Positions 1,639-29,605 of a stretch of DNA of 64,000 nt are shown here, in pieces. This stretch comes from a virus. Lineage: Duplodnaviria; Heunggongvirae; Uroviricota; Caudoviricetes. Position numbers and translations under genes: made by a program. Within the stretch, counting starts at the first letter, position 1; the number at the start of each line of letters is the position of its first letter. The notes beneath the pieces were generated by a model. The model did not search any database, had not been told where the DNA came from, and worked only from the letters and a program-made list of their open reading frames with translations. The stretch is taken from IMG/VR virus record IMGVR_UViG_3300021387_001477; one strand, 5' to 3'.

Positions 1639-3134
1639 CAATTATGTTTACTTTAGGCCGTCTACTCCTAAAGCGAGAGTATCTCTCCACCTAGTTTCCT
1701 AGCGTGTTCAGACTATATTTTCATCTTCAGCATTACCTGGTCAGATGTCCTATCTTTCGAGTGGCCATAAGACTTGCCGCCCTACTCTCTTTCGAGATAG
1801 TCGTTGAAAGCGCAGTATTATATAAATCTAAATTCTGGTTGAAATTTACTTTTTATTCTGTAGTTTATTGCCTGTCTTTTTAGTCCATAGAATTTTGCAC
1901 ATTCTGTTATAGATCCAAAAATTTTCCCTTCAGCATATACTTGTTTTCTTAGTTTTTTCCTAGTACTTGGGTTATTCATGTTATCAACTCTAGTACATAT
2001 TCTAAGATTTGTTACGCGATTGTTTAATGGGTCAGTGTCTATGTGGTCTACCTGAAGATCGCTGCTCAGAGGCTGATTGTTATTTAGGAATACTTCAGCC
2101 ACTAGTCTATGAACTGGTAGCTTAGAGAGATATTGTCTATATCCGTTTTTCTTGCTTCCAAGAGTTATTCCTCGTTTTCCATTAATTATTCCTAATGGAT
2201 GAACTGAGAAGTTTCCGGAATAGTGTTGTACCCACAGAGAGCTGTCAATAGTCTCACCATCTAGCAGGTAATTTTCTAGTTCAACATCTACTATTTTCCA
2301 ATATCTTCCTCTATACCTCTTCCCGGCCTTAGCTTGATCACATAATGGATGTTTCATTAAATCGCTATTATATAATTCTTCTTCCGTATACGAAACATCA
2401 AACTTTGTAAGTTCTTTATCAAAATATGCTTCATATCTGTGATTTTTTACATATTTTGGTATTGATTTGTTTGAATTGTTTTCCTTAACGGTTACCCACC
2501 TTAGATTACTTAAAGAATAATCTAAAATGTTTCTATTTATATGATCGATTGACGTTTTTGTTTCTGGACAGTCCACTGGGATAAATAACTTTGCTAACAT
2601 TCTATGAATCATCACTTTTTTATCCTTAGTATAAGATCCAGTCGGAATTGAATACATAGGATAACCAGATTTATTAAATAATATGGTTTTGTATTGTGTT
2701 CCTTGTTTCCCCTGCTTTATAAATTCTCCTTTTCGATTAATTAGAAAAGCATTTACAACATTCATCTCAGGGTACAGGTACTTTTTTATATCGAACCACT
2801 CTTGATTAATATCATCATAGAAATAGTCCATCACTTCTCCACTTGTGGTGTTCCAACATAAAACTTCGTTTTTTATTTTTATAACTTGATATCCTACTTG
2901 ATCAACTCCTTCTCTGAATGGGATTGAGTTTTCAATAAGGAATTCTCTAGTTATTGTTTTCATTATGTCATGTCTTATCATAAGTATACTTATTTTAAAT
3001 ACTGCGCTTGCGGATTGTCCTTACTATATGAGTTTTTACTGTCAACCCAGTATCATATATTTAACAGGAGTTCCCCGCTTTTAATAGGATTATACGGTAT
3101 ATATTTCTATATACTAGGACAACTGTTACATTTT
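1639..3134 (-). mobile_element. group I intron 1 of topoisomerase II large-subunit gene, carrying an HNH homing-endonuclease ORF
   Basis: Interrupts IMTDADVDG motif; conserved intron 5' module repeated at 3055-3120 and 1350-1420; 3' R/S-like elements at 1700-1810; splice junction gaU|...G|gct. Confidence 0.7.
1818..2981 (-). CDS. HNH homing endonuclease (intron-encoded), paralog of 10386..11894
   Basis: HNH motif (HRLVAEVF...; DHIDTD...N) plus second HNH-like block HINRNILDYSLSNLRWVTVKEN; lies inside intron. Confidence 0.7.
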   Translation of the reverse strand: MIRHDIMKTITREFLIENSIPFREGVDQVGYQVIKIKNEVLCWNTTSGEVMDYFYDDINQEWFDIKKYLYPEMNVVNAFLINRKGEFIKQGKQGTQYKTILFNKSGYPMYSIPTGSYTKDKKVMIHRMLAKLFIPVDCPETKTSIDHINRNILDYSLSNLRWVTVKENNSNKSIPKYVKNHRYEAYFDKELTKFDVSYTEEELYNSDLMKHPLCDQAKAGKRYRGRYWKIVDVELENYLLDGETIDSSLWVQHYSGNFSVHPLGIINGKRGITLGSKKNGYRQYLSKLPVHRLVAEVFLNNNQPLSSDLQVDHIDTDPLNNRVTNLRICTRVDNMNNPSTRKKLRKQVYAEGKIFGSITECAKFYGLKRQAINYRIKSKFQPEFRFI

Positions 3135-4799
3135 ATCCGTTGCTATAATCACTTTGCCAAATCTTGAATATCGTTTAATTTTTTCATATGCCTCTTCAGG
3201 ACTACTACACCCAGTGGTTACGTTGTTTACGTCAATTCCAAGTCCGATGACTCTGAATATAGTAAACAATTCTCTATTATCCATCATAGAATCAGCTGTA
3301 TCAGAAACTACATTCTTGACACGGCCTCTTAAAGGAATGACAGCCGTATACTTCGTACTCTTTCGTGCAGCCTTTAGAGAACCACCAGGAGATAGACCTT
3401 CAACTATAAATGCCTCACAGTCCCATCTTTCTCCAGGTCCGGCAGTTGCATCACTAAGTCCCTCAATCATCTCGGTCTTAGCTTTGTATACTCCACGACC
3501 AGCCGCTTCATCCATAATCCTCTGAGCTTTATCTGCAGCTCCTAAATTTTTCATAGAGTCCGCTAGATAGTTAAGTCTATCTACATGTGCATCCCAATAA
3601 TCTGGATTCTTCTTAAATATCTTCTGGAATTCTTTTACAATTGGATCAAAGTCTGACTGTTTAACTTTGGCGAAATTCTTTAGCTTCTCTTTTGTTTGGC
3701 TATTGAATACTGTTTCTGCCGCTAAAGCTACAACACACATCTTTAGTCCATTGGTTACGTACCTGTGTTTAATTCCATAGGTTTCACGAAGAGCCCTAAT
3801 GAAACAGTCCTCTACATAATTGATATGAACACCAGAGTCTACTACGAGCGAATTTACAGATCCACAATATTCCTTCGGGCTTAACTCTTCATCGACTCCA
3901 AAAGATACAAACAAGTCAATATATTCATTCATGCTAGTATCTTCTGGAATGATTCTCTTCATAAATTCAAACCCATAGCCAACAAACCCAGACCCCAAGA
4001 GCTCCTTTCCCTCAACTTCAATTCTTGCCTTTCTCTTATAAAATTTTTCTAAGATAAGTAAGAAATATTGAAGATTTTGAATAGGAACTGCCATCTTTTT
4101 GATAACAGCTGGTTCATAGATTTCGGGATCTGGTTTAAAAAGAATTATGGTTGACATACCACTAGGAAGCTGTTTTTCAAACTTTTTACCAAATGCTGCT
4201 TTTTCAAGATCAGCTTTCTTCATGGCTCCCTCATAGTATTTATATCCTTTCTTATACCAAACTATATAAAACAGATCTTTCTTACTCCTAGGTCCTGCAT
4301 TATTCCAGAGGTCATATACTGCTTTTGTAGATTTATCCCAGTTAAGAGGAGTAATTCTAGACATTAGTATATAATCTTCAGAAACTGCATTAACAGCACT
4401 AGAGCCAACACCATTCATTCCAACGGTTGCTACTTTACTGTCTGAAAATTTGGAACCAGAGTGAAGGGTACTTATAGATAGGTCCGCTTGAATAATTGGA
4501 GCTCCATCTTCCCCAATCTCTGATGAAGGGTATATTGGAATACCGCGCCCATCATCTGCAACCATAGCATAACCGTTCATATATCTATCAATGATTATAT
4601 TTTGGGCAGAATGATAGCACTCATCAACAGAGTTATCAATTATTTCTCTCAAAAGTGTATCACAGCTGTCAGTTCCCGAAAGATACATTCCGATACGCTG
4701 ACGTATAGCCTGTGGAAACTTTAAGAGTTTAATCTCATCTGGATTTTCTAAATTATTAAATTCATCATTCATATTATTATAAATTAAATTAATATTCAA
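3135..4799 (-). CDS. topoisomerase II large subunit exon 1: GHKL ATPase + TOPRIM (GyrB/T4 gp39-like)
   Basis: MNGVGSSAVNAVS (GyrB GLHGVG region), EGLSPGGS (TOPRIM EGDSAGGS), ends ...IIATD at splice site; in-frame stop 2 codons into intron. Confidence 0.85.
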
Positions 4800-4879: not shown

Positions 4880-5473
4880 TTATACTCCCCATTCTTCTGA
4901 TAATTCATATAAATCTACGACACTATCCCAACTCCCTCCGATTAGGCTTGGAGAGTGTGTTGCTATAATAACTTGGCCTGGATATTTACCTTCTGCCAAT
5001 ATCTTTTGAATGATATTTTGTACTCCTATATGTACATGAGTTTCTGGAAGATCAAAAAGCAATACTCCAGGAAAACAAGATAGATAATGAAGTACAAGAA
5101 GGGCATTATATTCACCAGGAGATGGAGGAAATCCCGTCTTCTTCTCAAGTGCTCCATTCTTTTCTATCCACTTATGCTCTAGGTAATCGTCATCAAAAGC
5201 CTCAGGAAATTTATTTAAAATATCTGAGGAAATTGGAACATTTTTATATGGATCTAAGAAATCACAGTAAAAGAATTTCTCTGGCTTATTATTTTTCCAT
5301 GTAAGCTCTAATTCCATTCCCTCGTCTGGACCATATGCTAAGGACCGAAGTAGGTGAGTTTTTCCATATCCATTCGGCCCAGTTACGAATGTCACTTTTC
5401 CTGGGAGCTTTATGTTTAGCTCTTTATCACCATAAATTAATGATTTCTTTATCTTTATCTTTTCTAGTTTCAT
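4880..5473 (-). CDS. small P-loop ATPase (ABC/RecF-like, AAA_21-type)
   Basis: Walker A GPNGYGKTHLL, Walker B LLFDLPE, ATHSP. Confidence 0.55.
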   Translation of the reverse strand: MKLEKIKIKKSLIYGDKELNIKLPGKVTFVTGPNGYGKTHLLRSLAYGPDEGMELELTWKNNKPEKFFYCDFLDPYKNVPISSDILNKFPEAFDDDYLEHKWIEKNGALEKKTGFPPSPGEYNALLVLHYLSCFPGVLLFDLPETHVHIGVQNIIQKILAEGKYPGQVIIATHSPSLIGGSWDSVVDLYELSEEWGV

Positions 5474-5480
5474 ATCTCGA

Positions 5481-5650
5481 AAAATAAAGGGAGGAACTTA
5501 ATCCTCCCTAAGGGTGCGGCAAATCCACTGGCGTACATCTGGGCCTGAATAGTACCGGCGTGGCTGCGGGCGGTGGTGTATAACCAGGGCCAAGCGTCTT
5601 CGGGTGCCGGTTTTGCGCAAAGGTTGGGGTAGGGCCACAACGCCATGTCG
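5481..5650 (-). ncRNA. candidate small RNA or structured attenuator leader: GC-rich ~170-nt promoter-to-terminator unit
   Basis: Promoter core CATATATAAGG (5657-5667, minus orientation) then atypically GC-rich segment, ending in hairpin GGGAGGAACTTAATCCTCCC + T-run immediately before ATG of 4880..5473; only R/P-rich spurious ORFs. Confidence 0.4.
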
Positions 5651-5670
5651 CATCCTCATATATAAGGATT

Positions 5671-6171
5671 TCAGGGGTTTTGAATTTCCTGGCACTCTTT
5701 ATATCCATATCCTTTTCTTAGAATATTGAGTGGGATTTGCTTTAAATATCCCACAAAATATATTATAGAAAATATTTCAAATATCTGAGGAATTTCTACT
5801 AGCGGTTTCCATTTTGAACCCTCCCCAAGCTTTGCAGAAAAATCTAAAAGGCTTCGTTCTATTCGTTCACAGTTGGTCCGAGTATTGTATATATACTTAC
5901 TATCGGTTGTTATATGTGGCACACTTTCCATTTCATATTCGAGTTTTATACACCGCTCTTCTACTAGTTCTGTAACTAAATAGAATTCTCCGGCTCCATT
6001 TTTAAAGTCTTCTAAAATATCTGGGCATATTTGGAGAATAGAGGGTAAGTACAGTAGATCAATTTCTATAAGATATCCCTCAGTATACTCTACTATCCCT
6101 AGAGAGATTTTAAATGCCCACATATCTACTTTGTTAGAGATTATTCTTAATGATCTTATTTTAATCATCAC
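5671..6171 (-). CDS. hypothetical protein
   Basis: 166-aa ORF, typical AT-rich codon usage. Confidence 0.5.
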   Translation of the reverse strand: MMIKIRSLRIISNKVDMWAFKISLGIVEYTEGYLIEIDLLYLPSILQICPDILEDFKNGAGEFYLVTELVEERCIKLEYEMESVPHITTDSKYIYNTRTNCERIERSLLDFSAKLGEGSKWKPLVEIPQIFEIFSIIYFVGYLKQIPLNILRKGYGYKECQEIQNP

Positions 6172-6192
6172 TTATAAGAAAAGAAAGGGGAC

Positions 6193-6402
6193 CTATAGTC
6201 CCCTGGTTATGTCATAGGTATTCCATGGAGTTCGAATTATTCTCCATGAGTCCCTATAACTATTAATAACACCGATAACAACACTTGATCTTTCTTTTCT
6301 TGGAATTAATAATACTCCAAGAAGCCCTATTGTATATTCCAGTAAAAAACATACCGGCCACATAATTATACAATAGGCAAGTTTAAAAATATTTTTTATC
6401 AT
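6193..6402 (-). CDS. small membrane protein (start corrected to internal Met; tracked ORF start overlaps promoter motif)
   Basis: ORF 6193..6432 begins ATGCCTTATATATG which is the promoter core; hydrophobic 69-aa product from MIKNIF. Confidence 0.45.
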   Translation of the reverse strand: MIKNIFKLAYCIIMWPVCFLLEYTIGLLGVLLIPRKERSSVVIGVINSYRDSWRIIRTPWNTYDITRGL

Positions 6403-6418: not shown

Positions 6419-6429
6419 CATATATAAGG
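6419..6429 (-). promoter_or_regulatory. conserved phage promoter core CCTTATATATG (minus orientation)
   Basis: Motif plus upstream TTTTTTTTCCGTCTCATA element; preceded by hairpin terminator of upstream gene. Confidence 0.55.
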
Positions 6430-11912: not shown

Positions 11913-12323
11913 TTATCTAATTCTTCTAAACCTAACTACGTACTTGCTTTCATCTCTCCTAACTTGGGCCCCTTTTTCTCGAATGAATCTAAGAATTGGA
12001 TGGGTAATCCAGTTAGGAACTAAATCCTCTCGTTTAGTATCACACTCTACTTTAAGATCTTTGCAATTCATAATCTTATCATACATTCTTGTCATTGCAT
12101 ATGCACTCCCCTCAAATTCGATTGTATTTTCATCAATCATTTTCATAGGCATAGCACATTCATATGCATCCCCAGCTAATAGATCAAATAATAACTTAAT
12201 CTTTGGCCCATAACTCGCACAATATGACGTGTAATACTGATCATAGAACTTTCTAATCTCAAATATCTTAGAAGTTGGTACATAGTTTGTATTTGAATCC
12301 GTTATTACTTTATGTTTCCACAA
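11913..12323 (-). CDS. DNA polymerase A, terminal exon (motif C region and C-terminus)
   Basis: CASYGPKIKLLFDLLAGDAYECAMPMKMIDE ~ T7 gp5 LQSAGALICKLW...AYMAWVHDE; ECDTKREDLVPNWITHP ~ T7 DTEGKMGPNWAICH; preceded by intron S-element and G. Confidence 0.65.
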   Translation of the reverse strand: MWKHKVITDSNTNYVPTSKIFEIRKFYDQYYTSYCASYGPKIKLLFDLLAGDAYECAMPMKMIDENTIEFEGSAYAMTRMYDKIMNCKDLKVECDTKREDLVPNWITHPILRFIREKGAQVRRDESKYVVRFRRIR

Positions 12324-12640
12324 AGACTAGACTATATCATTATCCATATTTCAGGATAGATCGCGCTTCGAGAGCAGGACTTTCACCTGATCTCTACTTC
12401 CTTTCAGAATAGTCGTTACACCTTCCATTTCTGGCTTGGCTCGGGATTAGCATGCATTTCTGTTTAGCTTTCCCCGATAGCAAGATTTCTCTCACACCCT
12501 ATATTTCTAGGTTCACGATCTTTTGCACTCTAGAATTACCCCTAGAGGCCACAATTTTACTTATGGACTACAATAATTGGTTGGAGTGGTTGTTTCCAGC
12601 CCTCTTGTATTGATTCACGTATATTATTAAAGAATCCTGA
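12324..12640 (-). mobile_element. group I intron in polA (canonical core); 5' boundary approximate
   Basis: CGGGGAAAGCTAAACAGAAATGCATGCTAATCCCGAGCCAAGCC ... GTGTAACGACTATTCTGAAAGG ... AATGATATAGTCTAGTC ... G| then exon. Confidence 0.55.
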
Positions 12641-12669: not shown

Positions 12670-12700
12670 GTTATTACTTTATGTTTCCACAAAGACTAGA
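12670..12700 (-). repeat. duplicate of the 31-nt intron-3'-tail/exon-start sequence CTAGTCTTTGTGGAAACATAAAGTAATAACG (other copy 12298-12328)
   Basis: Exact-looking repeat directly after a second intron S-element but not followed by coding sequence. Confidence 0.5.
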
Positions 12701-12925
12701 TCATATCATTATCCACATTCATGGATAGGCTGCGCTTCGGAATACAGAATTTCACTGTAAACCTACTCCTTTCGGATGATCGTTACACTTTCTCTATCTC
12801 TAGAGCTTAGCACGGGATTGGCATATTATTACTAACTTAGCTTTCCCCGTTAGCAAGATCTCTCACACCTAAGATTTCTTAGTTCACAGCCTGTTTCATA
12901 TAGGATTACTCCTATAAGCTACAAT
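12700..12925 (-). mobile_element. group I intron in polA (canonical core); boundaries approximate
   Basis: CGGGGAAAGCTAAGTTAGTAATAATATGCCAATCCCGTGCTAAGC ... GTGTAACGATCATCCGAAAGG ... AATGATATGATCTAGTC. Confidence 0.5.
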
Positions 12926-13209
12926 TTTATTTATAGGAAGATTCACGCCTAATCTTTCACACCTCGCCTTTAGATTATTCTTCTCTCTGGAATTTGCTTT
13001 TAGCCACAGATCATATTCTTTAATTTTTAATTTATCGCCCATTATTGAATTAATATATCCATCATGGCTAAATGGATACTGTTGTTGAGAGGCCACATAC
13101 TCTCTCAATTTAGGGAAACTTGTATAAAGTCCCTGTATAATATCATCAGCTTCCTCTTCTGAGCAAAATAGTCTTTCAGCCAATGATTTCTTTCCTAGAC
13201 CATAAAGAA
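12896..13209 (-). CDS. DNA polymerase A internal exon (palm: end of motif B to QG region); true 3' splice end near 12926
   Basis: SLAERLFCSEEEADDIIQGLYTSFPKLREYV ~ Klenow [31 protein letters not shown]; ...ARCERLGVNLPIN ~ AAERAAINAPMQG; naive join to micro-exon is out of frame by one nt (see findings). Confidence 0.6.
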
Positions 13210-13849: not shown

Positions 13850-14143
13850 CTTCTCTCTGGTTCTCTTATGAACTCCTGTATATTTCTATACAGATCAGAC
13901 TATATCTTCACCTCAATACCGAGGGCTTACCGTTTCCACTACACGAACTTTGTAGTGTACTCTCTTTCGAGATAGTCGTTGGGGTTTTGATACAGAGCTA
14001 GTTAGTCATACTAGCCTTAATTTTATAAATATTTATCAAAACCTGCTGATTGGCCTTATTCTTTGATTTCTTACGGAAGTGACTAAATCTTCTCGTACCA
14101 AAGACTTAACGGGCGTTTCCAGCATTTAGTAAGTTTATTTTTC
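13850..14143 (-). mobile_element. group I intron (family C-like) in polA; boundaries approximate
   Basis: CAACGACTATCTCGAAAGAGAGTACAC ... GAAGATATAGTCTGATCTGTATAGAAATATACAGGAGTTCATAAGAGAACC tail (tail duplicated at 14530-14570). Confidence 0.45.
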
Positions 14144-14144
14144 T

Positions 14145-14241
14145 TGGGATCACTCCCAAGCGATACTTAAATCTAATATCTTCGCCTTTATTAAACTTAT
14201 CAATCAAGTCGGGATCTCCGCTTGCGAAACCTGCAGCTTTT
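14145..14241 (-). CDS. polA exon fragment between motifs A and B (KAAGFASGDPDLIDKFNKGEDIRFKYRLGV...)
   Basis: Follows G of intron B3; resembles Klenow LLTAFAEGKDIH region; ends at 20-nt hairpin repeat CTTGGGAGTGATCCCAAG. Confidence 0.4.
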
Positions 14242-14509: not shown

Positions 14510-14741
<232 letters not shown>

Positions 14742-17423
14742 TTAGTTTTTCTTGGGATCACTCCCAAGTGACACCAATAATTTATTTTCAATGTCAAAAT
14801 AAGTTTCAATAAAGTCTTCATCTACTATATTCCCATTCTCGTCAATATGATATGGCGTTCGAACACAATCTTTAAAATCTGCATGACTAACCAAGACATG
14901 GAACGCACTAGACCACCTCTTTGAACTCTTTGTGTTGACCTCATAATGACAAAAGCATTTATGTACTGCTCCTGGCTCATTAGGGTCAGCTTCACGAATA
15001 GGAATATGTTTTTCGTCCTCAATTACCCACTTTCCCTCTTTCAGCATTCCATCAATATAGGTCGATAGAACCTTTGAATATTTTTTGAAGAGCAGATAAT
15101 TGATGACCATTTTTCTCATAAAATAGAATCTGTTATCAAAGTCAGATTCATTGAAGATCTTTCCATAATCTTCATATTGATCAGAAACATACTTAAAGAA
15201 CTGTTCCTGAGCGATATATCCATTAAAGTTACTCCACACCTCTTTTACCTGATCACATCCTAAGTCATTATAGAATTGATCAAACAGGACATATACTTTT
15301 TCTGGATAACTGGTTTGCCCTACTGGAGTTCCTTGATAAAGTTTTGTATAGTTCTCTCCAAAATGAGCAAATCCATCTTCAACTGTTTTTATACCGAGTT
15401 GTTCATAATATTTTTCTGCGCCTGGAAGTTGCTGCGCACTTTCAAACATTGCAGCGAGATATGCAGACTCGGTAGGATACAGTTGAGCAAATTCCAAACA
15501 GATCTCATCATTTTCAATGGGGGACTTACACTTAAAGAAGTTATCCGATACATAATCTGAATAACTAATTAAATCCCATTTTTGTCCAAATGCATAGATC
15601 TCTTGAGGAATGTTTTGTATGTCATTAAGTTGATTCTTTGAGACTTTCATTAACTCATTGAACGCTCTTTCATAATATAGATACTTCTCAAGCTCTATGT
15701 GTTTGTCATTTATCTTTATTTTATCTAGTCCGATTATAGGAATTAGTTTATCTCCCAAGACCTGTTGGATCTTCTTCTTTCCGCCAATTCCTGAATCAAT
15801 CTTAGACTTCAATACTTTCTGACCTGTTTTCTTATAGAGTTTTATCATTCCTACCTCTTCCATTGCTTCTCTTAGGACTTTCATAAAATTGGTAGCAAAG
15901 TCTGGACCATACTTCATTAATAATTGGCCCTCGTTTATACCAAGTTCATAAGCATCCATAGTATCAACATTAGAAGTCAGAAGATACTTAGCTATTTCAG
16001 CCGGATTTCCATTAAAGAAGGTATTATCATGCAGCAGTTTCTTGGCAATATCAGAATAATTATCTATATTTGCCATCTTTTTCTTGTGCTTATCCATCTT
16101 TATTTTACACCTAGCTTCACTACAAAACGTAATGCTCCACGCAATCATCTCTTTCGACTTCTTTTCATACTCCAATCTAAATGGCTCGTCAATATATAGG
16201 CCACAATTATGAAGTCTGGCGCCCAATCTTGCATTATCCATAAAGGTTCTAATACAATCTTCAGAGAATTTATCTTTCTCTACCAGATGTATCATAAGAG
16301 TATAGAAAGCGTCAAGATTACAATAATACCCTAATATTTCTGATGGAACACACATAAATGAACTCTTGTCCCAGTATTCAAGTATTAAAGCTTCAAATTC
16401 ATTTATATAACTTGGGTATCTTGCGCATATCTCAGCCCATTCCGGAGTTGTTTTAAAATCAGAGGGAGTAATTTTTAGAACTTTCTTCTTATCTTTCTTA
16501 AGTTTCCCTACTTCTTCATAAAACATGCTTTCAACAAGATCTGAGATTCTGTCAAACTCGGTATCCCAGACAGTAGCCTGAAGTATCATTTGGGCTGACC
16601 ACTTTAAGGAATATTTCTTTAAGTGATTTCCCTCAATGACATTATAAACAGACGCATCTATAAGATTATATAGGTCTACTCCAAACATTCTATGAGATAC
16701 GGCCTGTTCATATTGCATATTATAAGTTACAAGATGACTCTGCCTATGATTCAAAAAATCTCCAAATCTTTTACATATCATTCCGTATTGTTCAGGACTA
16801 CATGTATGTCTAAGATCTGTAAAACTTATAAATCCTCCGAAGTTTTTTGTACACAGTGATGCCCCAGATATATCAAACCATACATCCAAAGCCATACCAG
16901 ATGCCTCGAAGTCAAAGCCTAGGTCCTCAGTCTCTGGAAGATTACAAAGCCAGTCTAAAAATTTCATTGCTCCAGTAAAATCATGAATAACTTTACTTTG
17001 GAACCAGGAAAAATCAACGGGCTGTGTAAATCCTGGAGACATAAAATCTCTAATTATGTCTGGAGAAGGAGGATCTAGAACTACCTTAACAAAAGCTCCG
17101 CCCTCTATACTTAACCTTCGAAGTTTGGACACATCGAAGTAATTCTCTGACCTAACCCCAAAGTGATAGAACTGGTTTAGATATCGATAAGGTTCTGCCC
17201 CCACCAACATAACAGCATCACTTGGGCCTAATGTCAGAAACTCTCTTTTTGCATCATCGGACATAGATTCAATATTCTCAACCGTAAAGATCTGAGATGA
17301 ATCCAGCCCTATTCCATAATAATCCACCACGTAATTTGGTGTTTCTTTAGCTGAAATTAATACAAATCGTTTGTTCATAAATCTAAATATTAATATACCT
17401 TTGAGCCGATATCTTACATACAC
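14742..17423 (-). CDS. DNA polymerase A exon 1 (N-terminal region incl. 3'-5' exonuclease-like domain, no polymerase motifs A/B/C)
   Basis: 893-aa ORF; GFDFEASGMALDVWFD exo-like block; last codons overlap the 20-nt hairpin repeat so true 5' splice site may lie slightly upstream of the stop. Confidence 0.65.
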   Translation of the reverse strand: MYVRYRLKGILIFRFMNKRFVLISAKETPNYVVDYYGIGLDSSQIFTVENIESMSDDAKREFLTLGPSDAVMLVGAEPYRYLNQFYHFGVRSENYFDVSKLRRLSIEGGAFVKVVLDPPSPDIIRDFMSPGFTQPVDFSWFQSKVIHDFTGAMKFLDWLCNLPETEDLGFDFEASGMALDVWFDISGASLCTKNFGGFISFTDLRHTCSPEQYGMICKRFGDFLNHRQSHLVTYNMQYEQAVSHRMFGVDLYNLIDASVYNVIEGNHLKKYSLKWSAQMILQATVWDTEFDRISDLVESMFYEEVGKLKKDKKKVLKITPSDFKTTPEWAEICARYPSYINEFEALILEYWDKSSFMCVPSEILGYYCNLDAFYTLMIHLVEKDKFSEDCIRTFMDNARLGARLHNCGLYIDEPFRLEYEKKSKEMIAWSITFCSEARCKIKMDKHKKKMANIDNYSDIAKKLLHDNTFFNGNPAEIAKYLLTSNVDTMDAYELGINEGQLLMKYGPDFATNFMKVLREAMEEVGMIKLYKKTGQKVLKSKIDSGIGGKKKIQQVLGDKLIPIIGLDKIKINDKHIELEKYLYYERAFNELMKVSKNQLNDIQNIPQEIYAFGQKWDLISYSDYVSDNFFKCKSPIENDEICLEFAQLYPTESAYLAAMFESAQQLPGAEKYYEQLGIKTVEDGFAHFGENYTKLYQGTPVGQTSYPEKVYVLFDQFYNDLGCDQVKEVWSNFNGYIAQEQFFKYVSDQYEDYGKIFNESDFDNRFYFMRKMVINYLLFKKYSKVLSTYIDGMLKEGKWVIEDEKHIPIREADPNEPGAVHKCFCHYEVNTKSSKRWSSAFHVLVSHADFKDCVRTPYHIDENGNIVDEDFIETYFDIENKLLVSLGSDPKKN

Positions 17424-19224: not shown

Positions 19225-19388
19225 CTTATATATGAAAAGGAAGAATTAAAATGCGCTTCGAAACATCTATTTTGGGCTAGTTGTGCTAAGACATGGCTCG
19301 AGCCCGTCCGCGCTGGCATTCTCGGGGTCCAGCAAAAATGTCGAAGTTTCTTCCTGGGAGAGGTCTATAAAGTGGCCTCTCCTTTTTT
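19225..19388 (+). ncRNA. candidate small RNA: promoter-to-terminator unit without ORF
   Basis: Promoter CTTATATATG at 19225-19234; GC-rich body GGCTCGAGCCCGTCCGCGCTGG...; terminator hairpin GGGAGAGGTCTATAAAGTGGCCTCTCC + TTTTTT; longest ORF 9 codons. Confidence 0.4.
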
Positions 19389-19409
19389 CCGTCTATAATA
19401 ATTTAAATG

Positions 19410-25593: not shown

Positions 25594-25665
25594 GATCCAT
25601 TAGTTCAACGATAGAACAACTGTCCCTAAAACAGCACGTTGTCGGTTTGAATCCGACATGGATCA
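25594..25665 (+). tRNA. tRNA with anticodon CUA (amber-suppressor-like; anticodon loop CCCUAAA with C33 and a 27-43 mismatch)
   Basis: GATCCAT-TA-GTTC-AACGATA-GAAC-A-ACTGT-CCCUAAA-ACAGC-ACGTT-GTCGG-TTTGAAT-CCGAC-ATGGATC-A; otherwise canonical 72-nt cloverleaf. Confidence 0.5.
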
Positions 25666-25702
25666 CAAAGGACCTAAAATCCTTATAAAAGAAAATAAAT
25701 AA

Positions 25703-28900: not shown

Positions 28901-29319
28901 TAACGTTACTTAAAGGGAAATTATTTCCAACTTATTAAGTATAATTTGAGTGCACTGAAGGAAACTTTAGATGTAGAACCTCCCTAATTCGGTGAAAGCT
29001 AAGCGCAACGCTGCAAAACGCTCCCTGAAATACGGTTAGCGCCTATAGGATAAAGATGCGTATAAATTGCGTATGCTAATACCGAGCCAATGTTTAAAGA
29101 CAGTGTGTAGAGACGAGATACGGGAGGGACCTAAGTTGAAATTTATAAACGTAGTGGGTGGGAATTACCACGTTAAATCCAAAACCTGAGATAAAAGGCA
29201 TTTATAATCTTGCAAGATTTCAATATGGTTAAGATACAGTCCAGACCACAAACAGATTAAGAGCAGAACCAACCTGTATATCAAAGATTTAATCTGGTAG
29301 CGAAAGCTATAGTGGTAAG
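28901..29319 (+). mobile_element. group I intron at the classical tRNA-Leu(UAA) U34/A35 site
   Basis: GAGTGCACTGAAGGAAACTTTAGATGTAGAAC...TTCGGTGAAAGCTAAGC...ACCGAGCCAATG...GTGTAGAGACGAGATACGGGAGGGACCTAA...GATACAGTCC. Confidence 0.65.
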
Positions 29320-29351
29320 AAAATCCCTTGGGCAGAAGTGCCCGTGTGGGT

Positions 29352-29605
29352 TCTCAATCGAGCCGTCTATAGTGGAAACATTATAGATTATAACTGAGCA
29401 AAATCGGTGAAAGCTGAGATGCCAATACCGAGGTAACTATGGGAATATCGAAAGGTCCTATAGCACCGTAGAGCATAGAAGGTGAATAAATATAATCCTT
29501 CCAAGAGTGTTCAGCATCATGGAAGAAGTGATGAAGATATATGCCGAACTATTAGGAAATGAACTAATAGAGCACAGAGATAAAAAACTCTGTGGATAAC
29601 AAATT
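29352..29605 (+). mobile_element. family-B small group I intron in tRNA-Leu T-loop
   Basis: Near-identical to 26113..26372 and 55218..55455 copies; ends GGATAACAAATTG. Confidence 0.6.

Follow-up and report, generated by a model that had tools for sequence, protein, structure and literature searches.

What is the function, if any, of a strikingly GC-rich stretch of ~170 nt that begins with a promoter motif, ends in a terminator and lies directly before the start codon of an ATPase gene in an AT-rich phage genome? The element is encoded on the minus strand of the window, the whole 64,000-nucleotide stretch of viral DNA analysed here. The GC content of a 100-nt segment inside 5470-5690 reaches 65%, compared with a mean of 35.6% (sd 5.9%) across the 64 kb. 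No other place in the 64 kb reaches this value, the tRNA clusters lying below it at 53-55%, and the peak bears out the GC-richness that a sequence-only reading had pointed out for these ~170 nt. Read on the minus strand, the order is the stop codon of orf165, 4 nt, the promoter motif CTTATATATG, ~145 nt of GC-rich sequence, a hairpin, a U-tail and the ATPase ATG. The GC-rich body (5510-5651, minus) is C-rich (C 36%, G 26%) and carries neither a coding signal nor a supported RNA fold, as detailed below. The upstream gene, orf165 (5671-6171, minus), encodes a protein of 165 aa of unknown function. As its stop codon is located 4 nt upstream of the promoter motif, orf165 transcripts would also enter the element and end at the same terminator. 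Since the promoter motif and the terminator directly precede the ATPase start with no promoter between, the stretch represents a potential ~170-nt transcript and, at the same time, the 5' leader of any ATPase mRNA. The positions of motif, terminator and start codon confirm the architecture proposed earlier, a promoter-to-terminator unit adjoining the ATPase gene.

The promoter motif CTTATATATG (5657-5666, minus) is a perfect copy of a motif that recurs in this genome. Its longer form TCCTTATATATG was found at 20 sites with at most 1 mismatch, compared with 0.81 expected, a count of 20 being reached in 0 of 100 shuffles; the copy at 5657-5668 is a perfect match. The 10-mer core of the motif occurs 44 times at ≤1 mismatch, and by our reading of the list ~30 of these occurrences are intergenic and aimed at a gene. 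The motif ends 4 nt upstream of the 5' ends of tRNA-Glu (19959, minus) and tRNA-Leu (29713, plus). It also ends 2-5 nt ahead of ~10 start codons, so that these ~10 genes would be nearly leaderless. All seven variants of the element (see below) keep the motif, with a T>C change in two lineages. The earlier claim of a consensus promoter at 5657-5667 (minus) holds in part: the site is a genuine over-represented phage motif but not a sigma-70 consensus, as a sigma-70 consensus scan listed no site at the element promoter.

Within the motif, the octamer TATATATG (5657-5664) is similar to TAnnTTTG, the -7 box of Bacteroidota sigma-A promoters, matching 5 of the 6 specified positions of a consensus that may not be that of the host. 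In Flavobacterium this -7 box occupies -12 to -5 (PMC9723704), and with the same geometry the +1 position falls exactly on the 5' ends of the tRNAs. No -33 element TTTG was found around 5683-5688, where the sequence is AGGAAATTCAAAA. From the 4-nt spacing between motif and tRNA, combined with the -7 box geometry (PMC9723704), we infer that the element transcript would start at 5652-5654 (minus). The element promoter is at the centre of a near-perfect palindrome of 18 nt, ATCCTTATATATGAGGAT (5652-5669), whose arms are conserved in 7 of 7 variants. This palindrome could be an operator, or a mere extension of the nearly palindromic motif.

The 3' end of the element is formed by an intrinsic terminator. 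The hairpin AGGGAGGA-UUAAGU-UCCUCCCU (5488-5509, minus) has a stem of 8 bp (5 G-C) and a 6-nt loop, with a predicted dG of -14.2 kcal/mol and a formation probability of at least 0.84 in every variant. The U-tract that follows (5480-5487, minus) reads UUAUUUUU in the window and UCAUUUUU in the other variants. Note that the T-run is present on the transcribed (minus) strand only, the plus-strand reading being without one. The ATPase ATG (5473) is located 6-8 nt downstream of the terminator and 6 nt past the last U, in agreement with the perfect hairpin and T-run ~8 nt before the ATG that had been noted previously. None of the 22 terminator columns is changed across the 7 variants; by simple arithmetic, 22 unchanged columns have a probability of ~0.01 at the substitution rate of the body.

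A second terminator (6186-6204, minus) precedes the start codon of orf165 (6171/6168), again with no promoter between, a layout like that of the ATPase. Terminator-like sites are in four-fold excess in the region, with 8 observed compared with 2.1 in shuffles. Recurring at orf165, the terminator-before-start layout is a general trait of this genome rather than a dedicated device, and leaky terminators within operons seem to be the normal way in which the phage grades expression. We also observed cassettes of ~45 nt, composed of a hairpin/T-run, CCGTCTATAAT... and (G)CCTTATATATG, that is, a terminator plus a promoter, at motif positions 6428, 6648, 7259, 7882, 9390, 19411 and 33058. These cassettes flank small genes of unknown function and are reminiscent of the PeSL (promoter-early stem-loop) cassettes of T4-type phages, reportedly described by Arbiol, Comeau and Krisch in 2010. 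As in phages with PeSL cassettes, units of terminator plus promoter recur along the genome in the window on either side of small accessory genes, and the variable region that houses the element is of this kind. However, the element itself has the order promoter, spacer, terminator and does not belong to the repeated cassettes.

The gene downstream of the terminator (4880-5473, minus) encodes a minimal ABC-type ATPase of 197 aa with Walker A, signature motif, Walker B and H-loop. It matches AAA_21 (1.8e-11) and AAA_15 (4.8e-9) in Pfam, and PtuA (7e-13) and AriA (7e-12) in PADLOC; the two ends of the protein match the PtuA, AriA and GajA ATPase profiles. No homologue of the ATPase was found outside its own 90% cluster. 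No promoter motif is present between the terminator and the ATPase ATG, and hence the ATPase mRNA must come from read-through. A TAnnTTTG-like box within the U-tract (TATTTTTC) was considered as an ATPase promoter and rejected, being present only in the window variant and lost in 6 of 7. In one strain (L149:1425-1930), residues 5-32 of the ATPase are lost through an out-of-frame deletion of ~80 nt, and the upstream element is intact and identical to that of locus L136. The broken gene indicates that the ATPase is dispensable, unless the deletion is an assembly error.

A 317-kb contig from an ENA metagenome contains the ATPase sequence, as do three other, identical contigs, which identifies the window as part of an uncultured jumbo phage seen only in metagenomes. 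Variants of the element were gathered via the contigs of the members of the ATPase 90% cluster, with one more contig obtained via a phmmer match. This yielded seven distinct variants, 91-95% identical and visibly mosaic. Element and ATPase were found only in one species-level lineage. Relatives with a topoisomerase II subunit of 92% or ~70% identity have neither of the two at the syntenic site, and entirely different genes lie upstream of the topoisomerase gene there. Judged from these comparisons, the absence in relatives and the broken ATPase fit an accessory, dispensable cassette of a single species-level lineage.

Searches of wider collections gave a consistent picture. Comparison by blastn with INPHARED phages, using the element and the surrounding 6 kb, returned no match, nor did blastn of the element against PLSDB plasmids. 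Scans of IMG/VR with three neighbouring proteins and three DNA blocks revealed no relative; the 17-mer seeds that matched were chance hits to GC-rich contigs of unrelated origin. The GTDB genomes, scanned with one GC-simple 19-mer, contained 120 matches, all of them chance seeds, the best extending over 72 nt at 71% identity. Nothing beyond the identical AUXO contig was found in a JGI metagenome scan. An nhmmer profile of the 7 variants, run against the window and 150 loci (L001-L150), detected orthologous copies only and no paralogue.

Several other features of the window were recorded. The topoisomerase II (GyrB-like) gene at 1818-4799 (minus) ends after 548 aa and is followed by a gene for an HNH/I-TevI-type endonuclease. 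The topoisomerase II of the closest relative is an uninterrupted protein of 678 aa, indicating that the gene is split here by a homing-endonuclease insertion. Four group I introns above the Rfam gathering threshold are found on the minus strand within 2.5 kb (12308-12572, 12677-12942, 13876-14185 and 14564-14800), directly downstream of an 893-aa ORF (14742-17423, minus). The introns appear to divide a single gene into many exons. Within the phage tRNA cluster, a tRNA with anticodon CUA (25594-25666, plus), labelled 'Pyl' by ARAGORN, represents an amber suppressor, and TAG may be read through or recoded in part of the jumbo phage. The segment 28843-29566 (plus) comprises a promoter motif, a sequence resembling the 5' half of a tRNA (GACTCGGCTTGGTGGTGGAATGGTAGACACGAGGGACTTTAA...) and, further on, two group I intron matches that score below threshold, with 41.6 bits for 28933-29263 and 31.1 bits for 29342-29566. 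An intron-split tRNA gene overlooked by ARAGORN may be present here.

We compared the variants to determine how strongly the body is constrained. Among six variants, 15.6% of the body columns are variable, as are 17.1% of the third codon positions of the ATPase and 10.1% of all ATPase columns. Between the window and locus L005, the body differs at 8.5% of positions, and third codon positions differ at 10.7% in the topoisomerase and 7.6% in the ATPase. The body varies at the rate of synonymous sites and is weakly constrained. Singleton changes in the body comprise 5 from G/C to A/T and 1 from A/T to G/C, with corresponding counts of 10 and 16 in the ATPase. Though the numbers are small, the GC island appears to be decaying towards the composition of the genome. 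Two of the three lineages that bear indels have +1/-1 indel pairs that keep the length constant, which may be chance, and variant L150 has an uncompensated 2-nt deletion.

Three segments are unchanged in all 7 variants: the initial 18 nt of the predicted transcript, the 13 nt that lead up to the terminator, and the 22 terminator columns. The invariant 5' segment AGGAUGCGACA (5646-5656, minus) is predicted to pair with 5511-5521, forming a hypothetical helix, P1, of 9 bp and two A.C mismatches that RNAalifold returned for both 5 and 7 variants. The invariant segment UGCCGCACCCU (5511-5521, minus), directly upstream of the terminator, would be the 3' strand of P1. As both strands are invariant, covariation has no power to test P1. 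The invariance of two complementary strands is the only feature that hints at constraint on the RNA level, and a leader model does not need it.

Is the body translated? The sense frames are all open in every variant, at 51, 58 and 66 aa in the window. The probability of so few stops for a sequence of this composition is P = 0.065, and the three open frames are attributable to composition. Variable columns are distributed over the three codon positions as 7:7:6 in the 58-aa frame, the other frames being equally flat, and GC3 periodicity is absent (P = 0.37). A phmmer search against 1.84 billion representative proteins returned, apart from one low-complexity match, nothing but ORF calls from the phage itself, and the ORFs of the element had no match in Pfam or PHROGs. 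Maintenance of the frame by paired indels looked suggestive and was contradicted by the 2-nt deletion of L150. The element is not a conserved protein gene. The view of the sequence-only reading that only spurious ORFs are present has held up, given the flat codon positions, the lack of periodicity and the lack of homologues outside the lineage.

We next consider RNA structure. Rfam 15 gave no match on the element, either at the gathering score (whole window) or at E ≤10 (5300-5900), the tRNA/tmRNA scan found none at the element, and TRF combined with a repeat search detected no tandem or direct repeats in 5481-5656. Without its terminator, the body folds no more stably than dinucleotide shuffles (z +0.32 for the window, +0.66 for L141). 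The whole region reaches z -2.7 and the transcript z -1.6; this apparent stability is due to the terminator and to the palindrome over the promoter. A control unit of the same genome (19239-19355) has a fold z of -2.06. RNAalifold on 2, 5 and 7 variants produced three differing consensus folds, indicating that the fold is only weakly defined by the data. In the 7-variant fold, 0 of 46 pairs are changed on both sides, four are changed on one side and three are broken in some variants, counts that are indistinguishable from column shuffles. Note that with 7 variants at 91-95% identity this comparison has low power for structure or weak selection. Variable sites do not avoid positions predicted as paired in any single sequence, and the 5' hairpin of the minimum-free-energy fold of the window alone is broken by substitutions in L005. 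An R-loop origin was also considered and discarded, the RNA strand being C-rich, not G-rich.

The sequence-only reading had proposed a riboswitch or terminator/antiterminator leader, suggesting an Rfam scan and a search for alternative terminator-antiterminator structures. Rfam assigns no family even at E ≤10. Constrained folding of the variants found no terminator/antiterminator design: forbidding the 3' arm of the terminator costs 11-14 kcal/mol without any alternative pairing, the 5' arm is free in the nascent-RNA fold apart from a 3-bp CCC/GGG mini-helix, and the terminator forms with a probability of at least 0.84. With no antiterminator, no covariation, a body z of ~0 and occurrence in a single lineage, the proposal of a switch is not upheld.

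These data bear on several explanations of the element. If the element were a riboswitch or another regulated attenuator, its body would respond to a ligand, protein or tRNA by switching the terminator on or off and so control the ATPase. Riboswitch, T-box and other terminator/antiterminator leaders share with the element a long (here GC-rich) 5' leader, a terminator directly before the gene and possibly a P1-type closing helix, which would bring the 5' end together with the segment next to the terminator, as in many aptamers. In contrast to such leaders, the element is blank in Rfam, has no covariation and a fold z of ~0, lacks a competing antiterminator, with neither terminator arm having an alternative pairing, and is confined to one lineage. 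In addition, predicted sub-helices are broken in L136, L141, L144 and L150, and the suggestive terminator-before-start layout also occurs at orf165. We consider regulated attenuation very unlikely. Translation of a small ORF, either the 58-aa frame or a leaderless 51-aa frame, could supply a small protein, or a leader peptide of the pyrBI type permitting read-through and translational coupling. The pyrBI leader ORF of E. coli is translated through the attenuator; there, as in the element, one open frame runs through the whole leader with its terminator up to where the next gene begins. An ATG is present at, or 7 nt past, the predicted start, as in many near-leaderless genes of this phage, the 58-aa frame ends in an ATGA overlapping the ATPase ATG, gene callers predicted the ORF in L140 and L144, and two +1/-1 indel pairs keep the frame. 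However, unlike in pyrBI, the frame is lost in L150, where the 2-nt deletion shifts it and removes the ATGA overlap, which also weakens a role in coupling alone without amino-acid constraint. Moreover, every frame of the element is open through composition alone, codon-position counts are flat in all frames with no GC3 periodicity, and the only homologues are the phage's own copies, with no Pfam or PHROGs match. This makes a functional small ORF highly improbable.

Alternatively, the RNA itself could be the product. A separate gene of ~170 nt for a small RNA that acts in trans or binds a protein, with read-through into the ATPase being incidental, would explain a complete unit that has its own promoter and terminator but no conserved ORF. 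In AT-rich genomes, an island of high GC content is often a stable RNA, and the one here could be such a case. The promoter has the flavour 'AAAT(T/C)CTTATATATG' seen before tRNA genes and before two non-coding units (19225-19392 and 21489-21405), and the invariant 5' end can pair with the pre-terminator segment as a closing helix. Lambda OOP, T4 RNA C and D, and type I 3'UTR-derived small RNAs such as DapZ likewise have their own promoter after an upstream stop, a terminator shared with the upstream mRNA, a length of 100-200 nt and no ORF. The element differs from these RNAs in that no antisense target, conserved seed or conserved fold was found for it, and in having a protein gene 6 nt past its terminator. 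Its body evolves at the synonymous rate and is losing G/C, the fold z is +0.3 compared with -2.06 for unit 19239-19355, and covariation is absent. Apart from the promoter motif, no stretch of ≥12 nt in the rest of the 64 kb is antisense to it, and no paralogue or homologue was found in the collections searched. Unlike in the other two units, no promoter follows the terminator, and the element is physically the leader of the ATPase. We therefore regard an independent small RNA as unlikely, although deserving consideration. A type III toxin-antitoxin-like pair, in which the leader RNA neutralises the downstream protein and the terminator sets the RNA:protein ratio, would have the order promoter, non-coding RNA, terminator and immediately following protein gene known from toxIN, cptIN and tenpIN, and ATPases of the class encoded here are common in defence systems. 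In contrast to these systems, the RNA contains no array of tandem or direct repeats and is not conserved relative to synonymous sites, the protein is an AAA_21/AAA_15 ABC ATPase and not an endoribonuclease of the ToxN/AbiQ, CptN or TenpN type, and in L149 the ATPase is disrupted with the leader intact. Such a pair is scarcely credible. In a more speculative version, which we consider a long shot, the GC-rich RNA would be a dedicated antitoxin-like, scaffold or guide partner of the mini PtuA/AriA-like ATPase, with the 5' end and the pre-terminator segment forming a functional helix. RNA and ATPase would then constitute an undescribed accessory module of type III toxin-antitoxin-like layout for jumbo-phage defence or counter-defence.

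The two other ORF-less promoter-to-terminator units in the window, 19225-19392 (plus) and 21489-21405 (minus), are each followed by a new promoter. The former has a 117-nt body closed by GGAAGAA/UUCUUCC with a fold z of -2.06, and the latter encodes a two-hairpin RNA of ~76 nt. Both are better small-RNA candidates than the element.

The explanation that we favour, with moderate confidence, is that the element is a constitutive attenuating leader of the accessory mini ABC ATPase. The phage promoter, with its -7 box of the host sigma-A type, would fire ~5 nt past the motif, near 5652-5654. RNA polymerase would then produce ~145 nt of GC-rich, C-rich non-coding RNA before reaching the strong terminator (5509-5480). 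Termination would be efficient but incomplete: most transcripts, including those from orf165, would stop there, giving rise to a ~170-nt RNA, and the minority that reads through would be the sole source of mRNA for the ATPase, with its AUG 6 nt further on. The role of the terminator would be that of a constant throttle and an insulator rather than a switch. A comparable arrangement, with a terminator between a promoter and a promoterless gene, is found in the promoter-proximal terminators and the early/delayed-early read-through of T4 and lambda. In contrast to these phages, the element has a 145-nt spacer that looks foreign in composition, and no antitermination factor or nut/put site was identified.

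In this leader, the GC-rich body would serve as a weakly constrained spacer, possibly of foreign origin and recently acquired, now drifting towards A+T. A neutral spacer fails to explain the GC-richest spot of an AT-rich genome unless it is a recent arrival; the donor of the body was not found in searches that used exact seeds or limited collections. A role on the DNA level may be a further possibility for the element.

The wider meaning depends on the reading. Only if the RNA acts together with the PtuA/AriA-like ATPase would the element bear on the RNA components of defence and counter-defence systems. If the leader explanation is true, the element is ordinary phage gene-expression plumbing, in which a leaky terminator throttles a dispensable accessory ATPase. 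The main value of the analysis is in annotation, the element being best described as a non-coding leader, not as a gene and not as a riboswitch. For the uncultured jumbo-phage clade, the analysis has three by-products that help annotation: a clearly defined promoter motif whose resemblance to the Bacteroidota -7 box points to the host phylum, the many near-leaderless genes, and the other promoter-to-terminator non-coding units.
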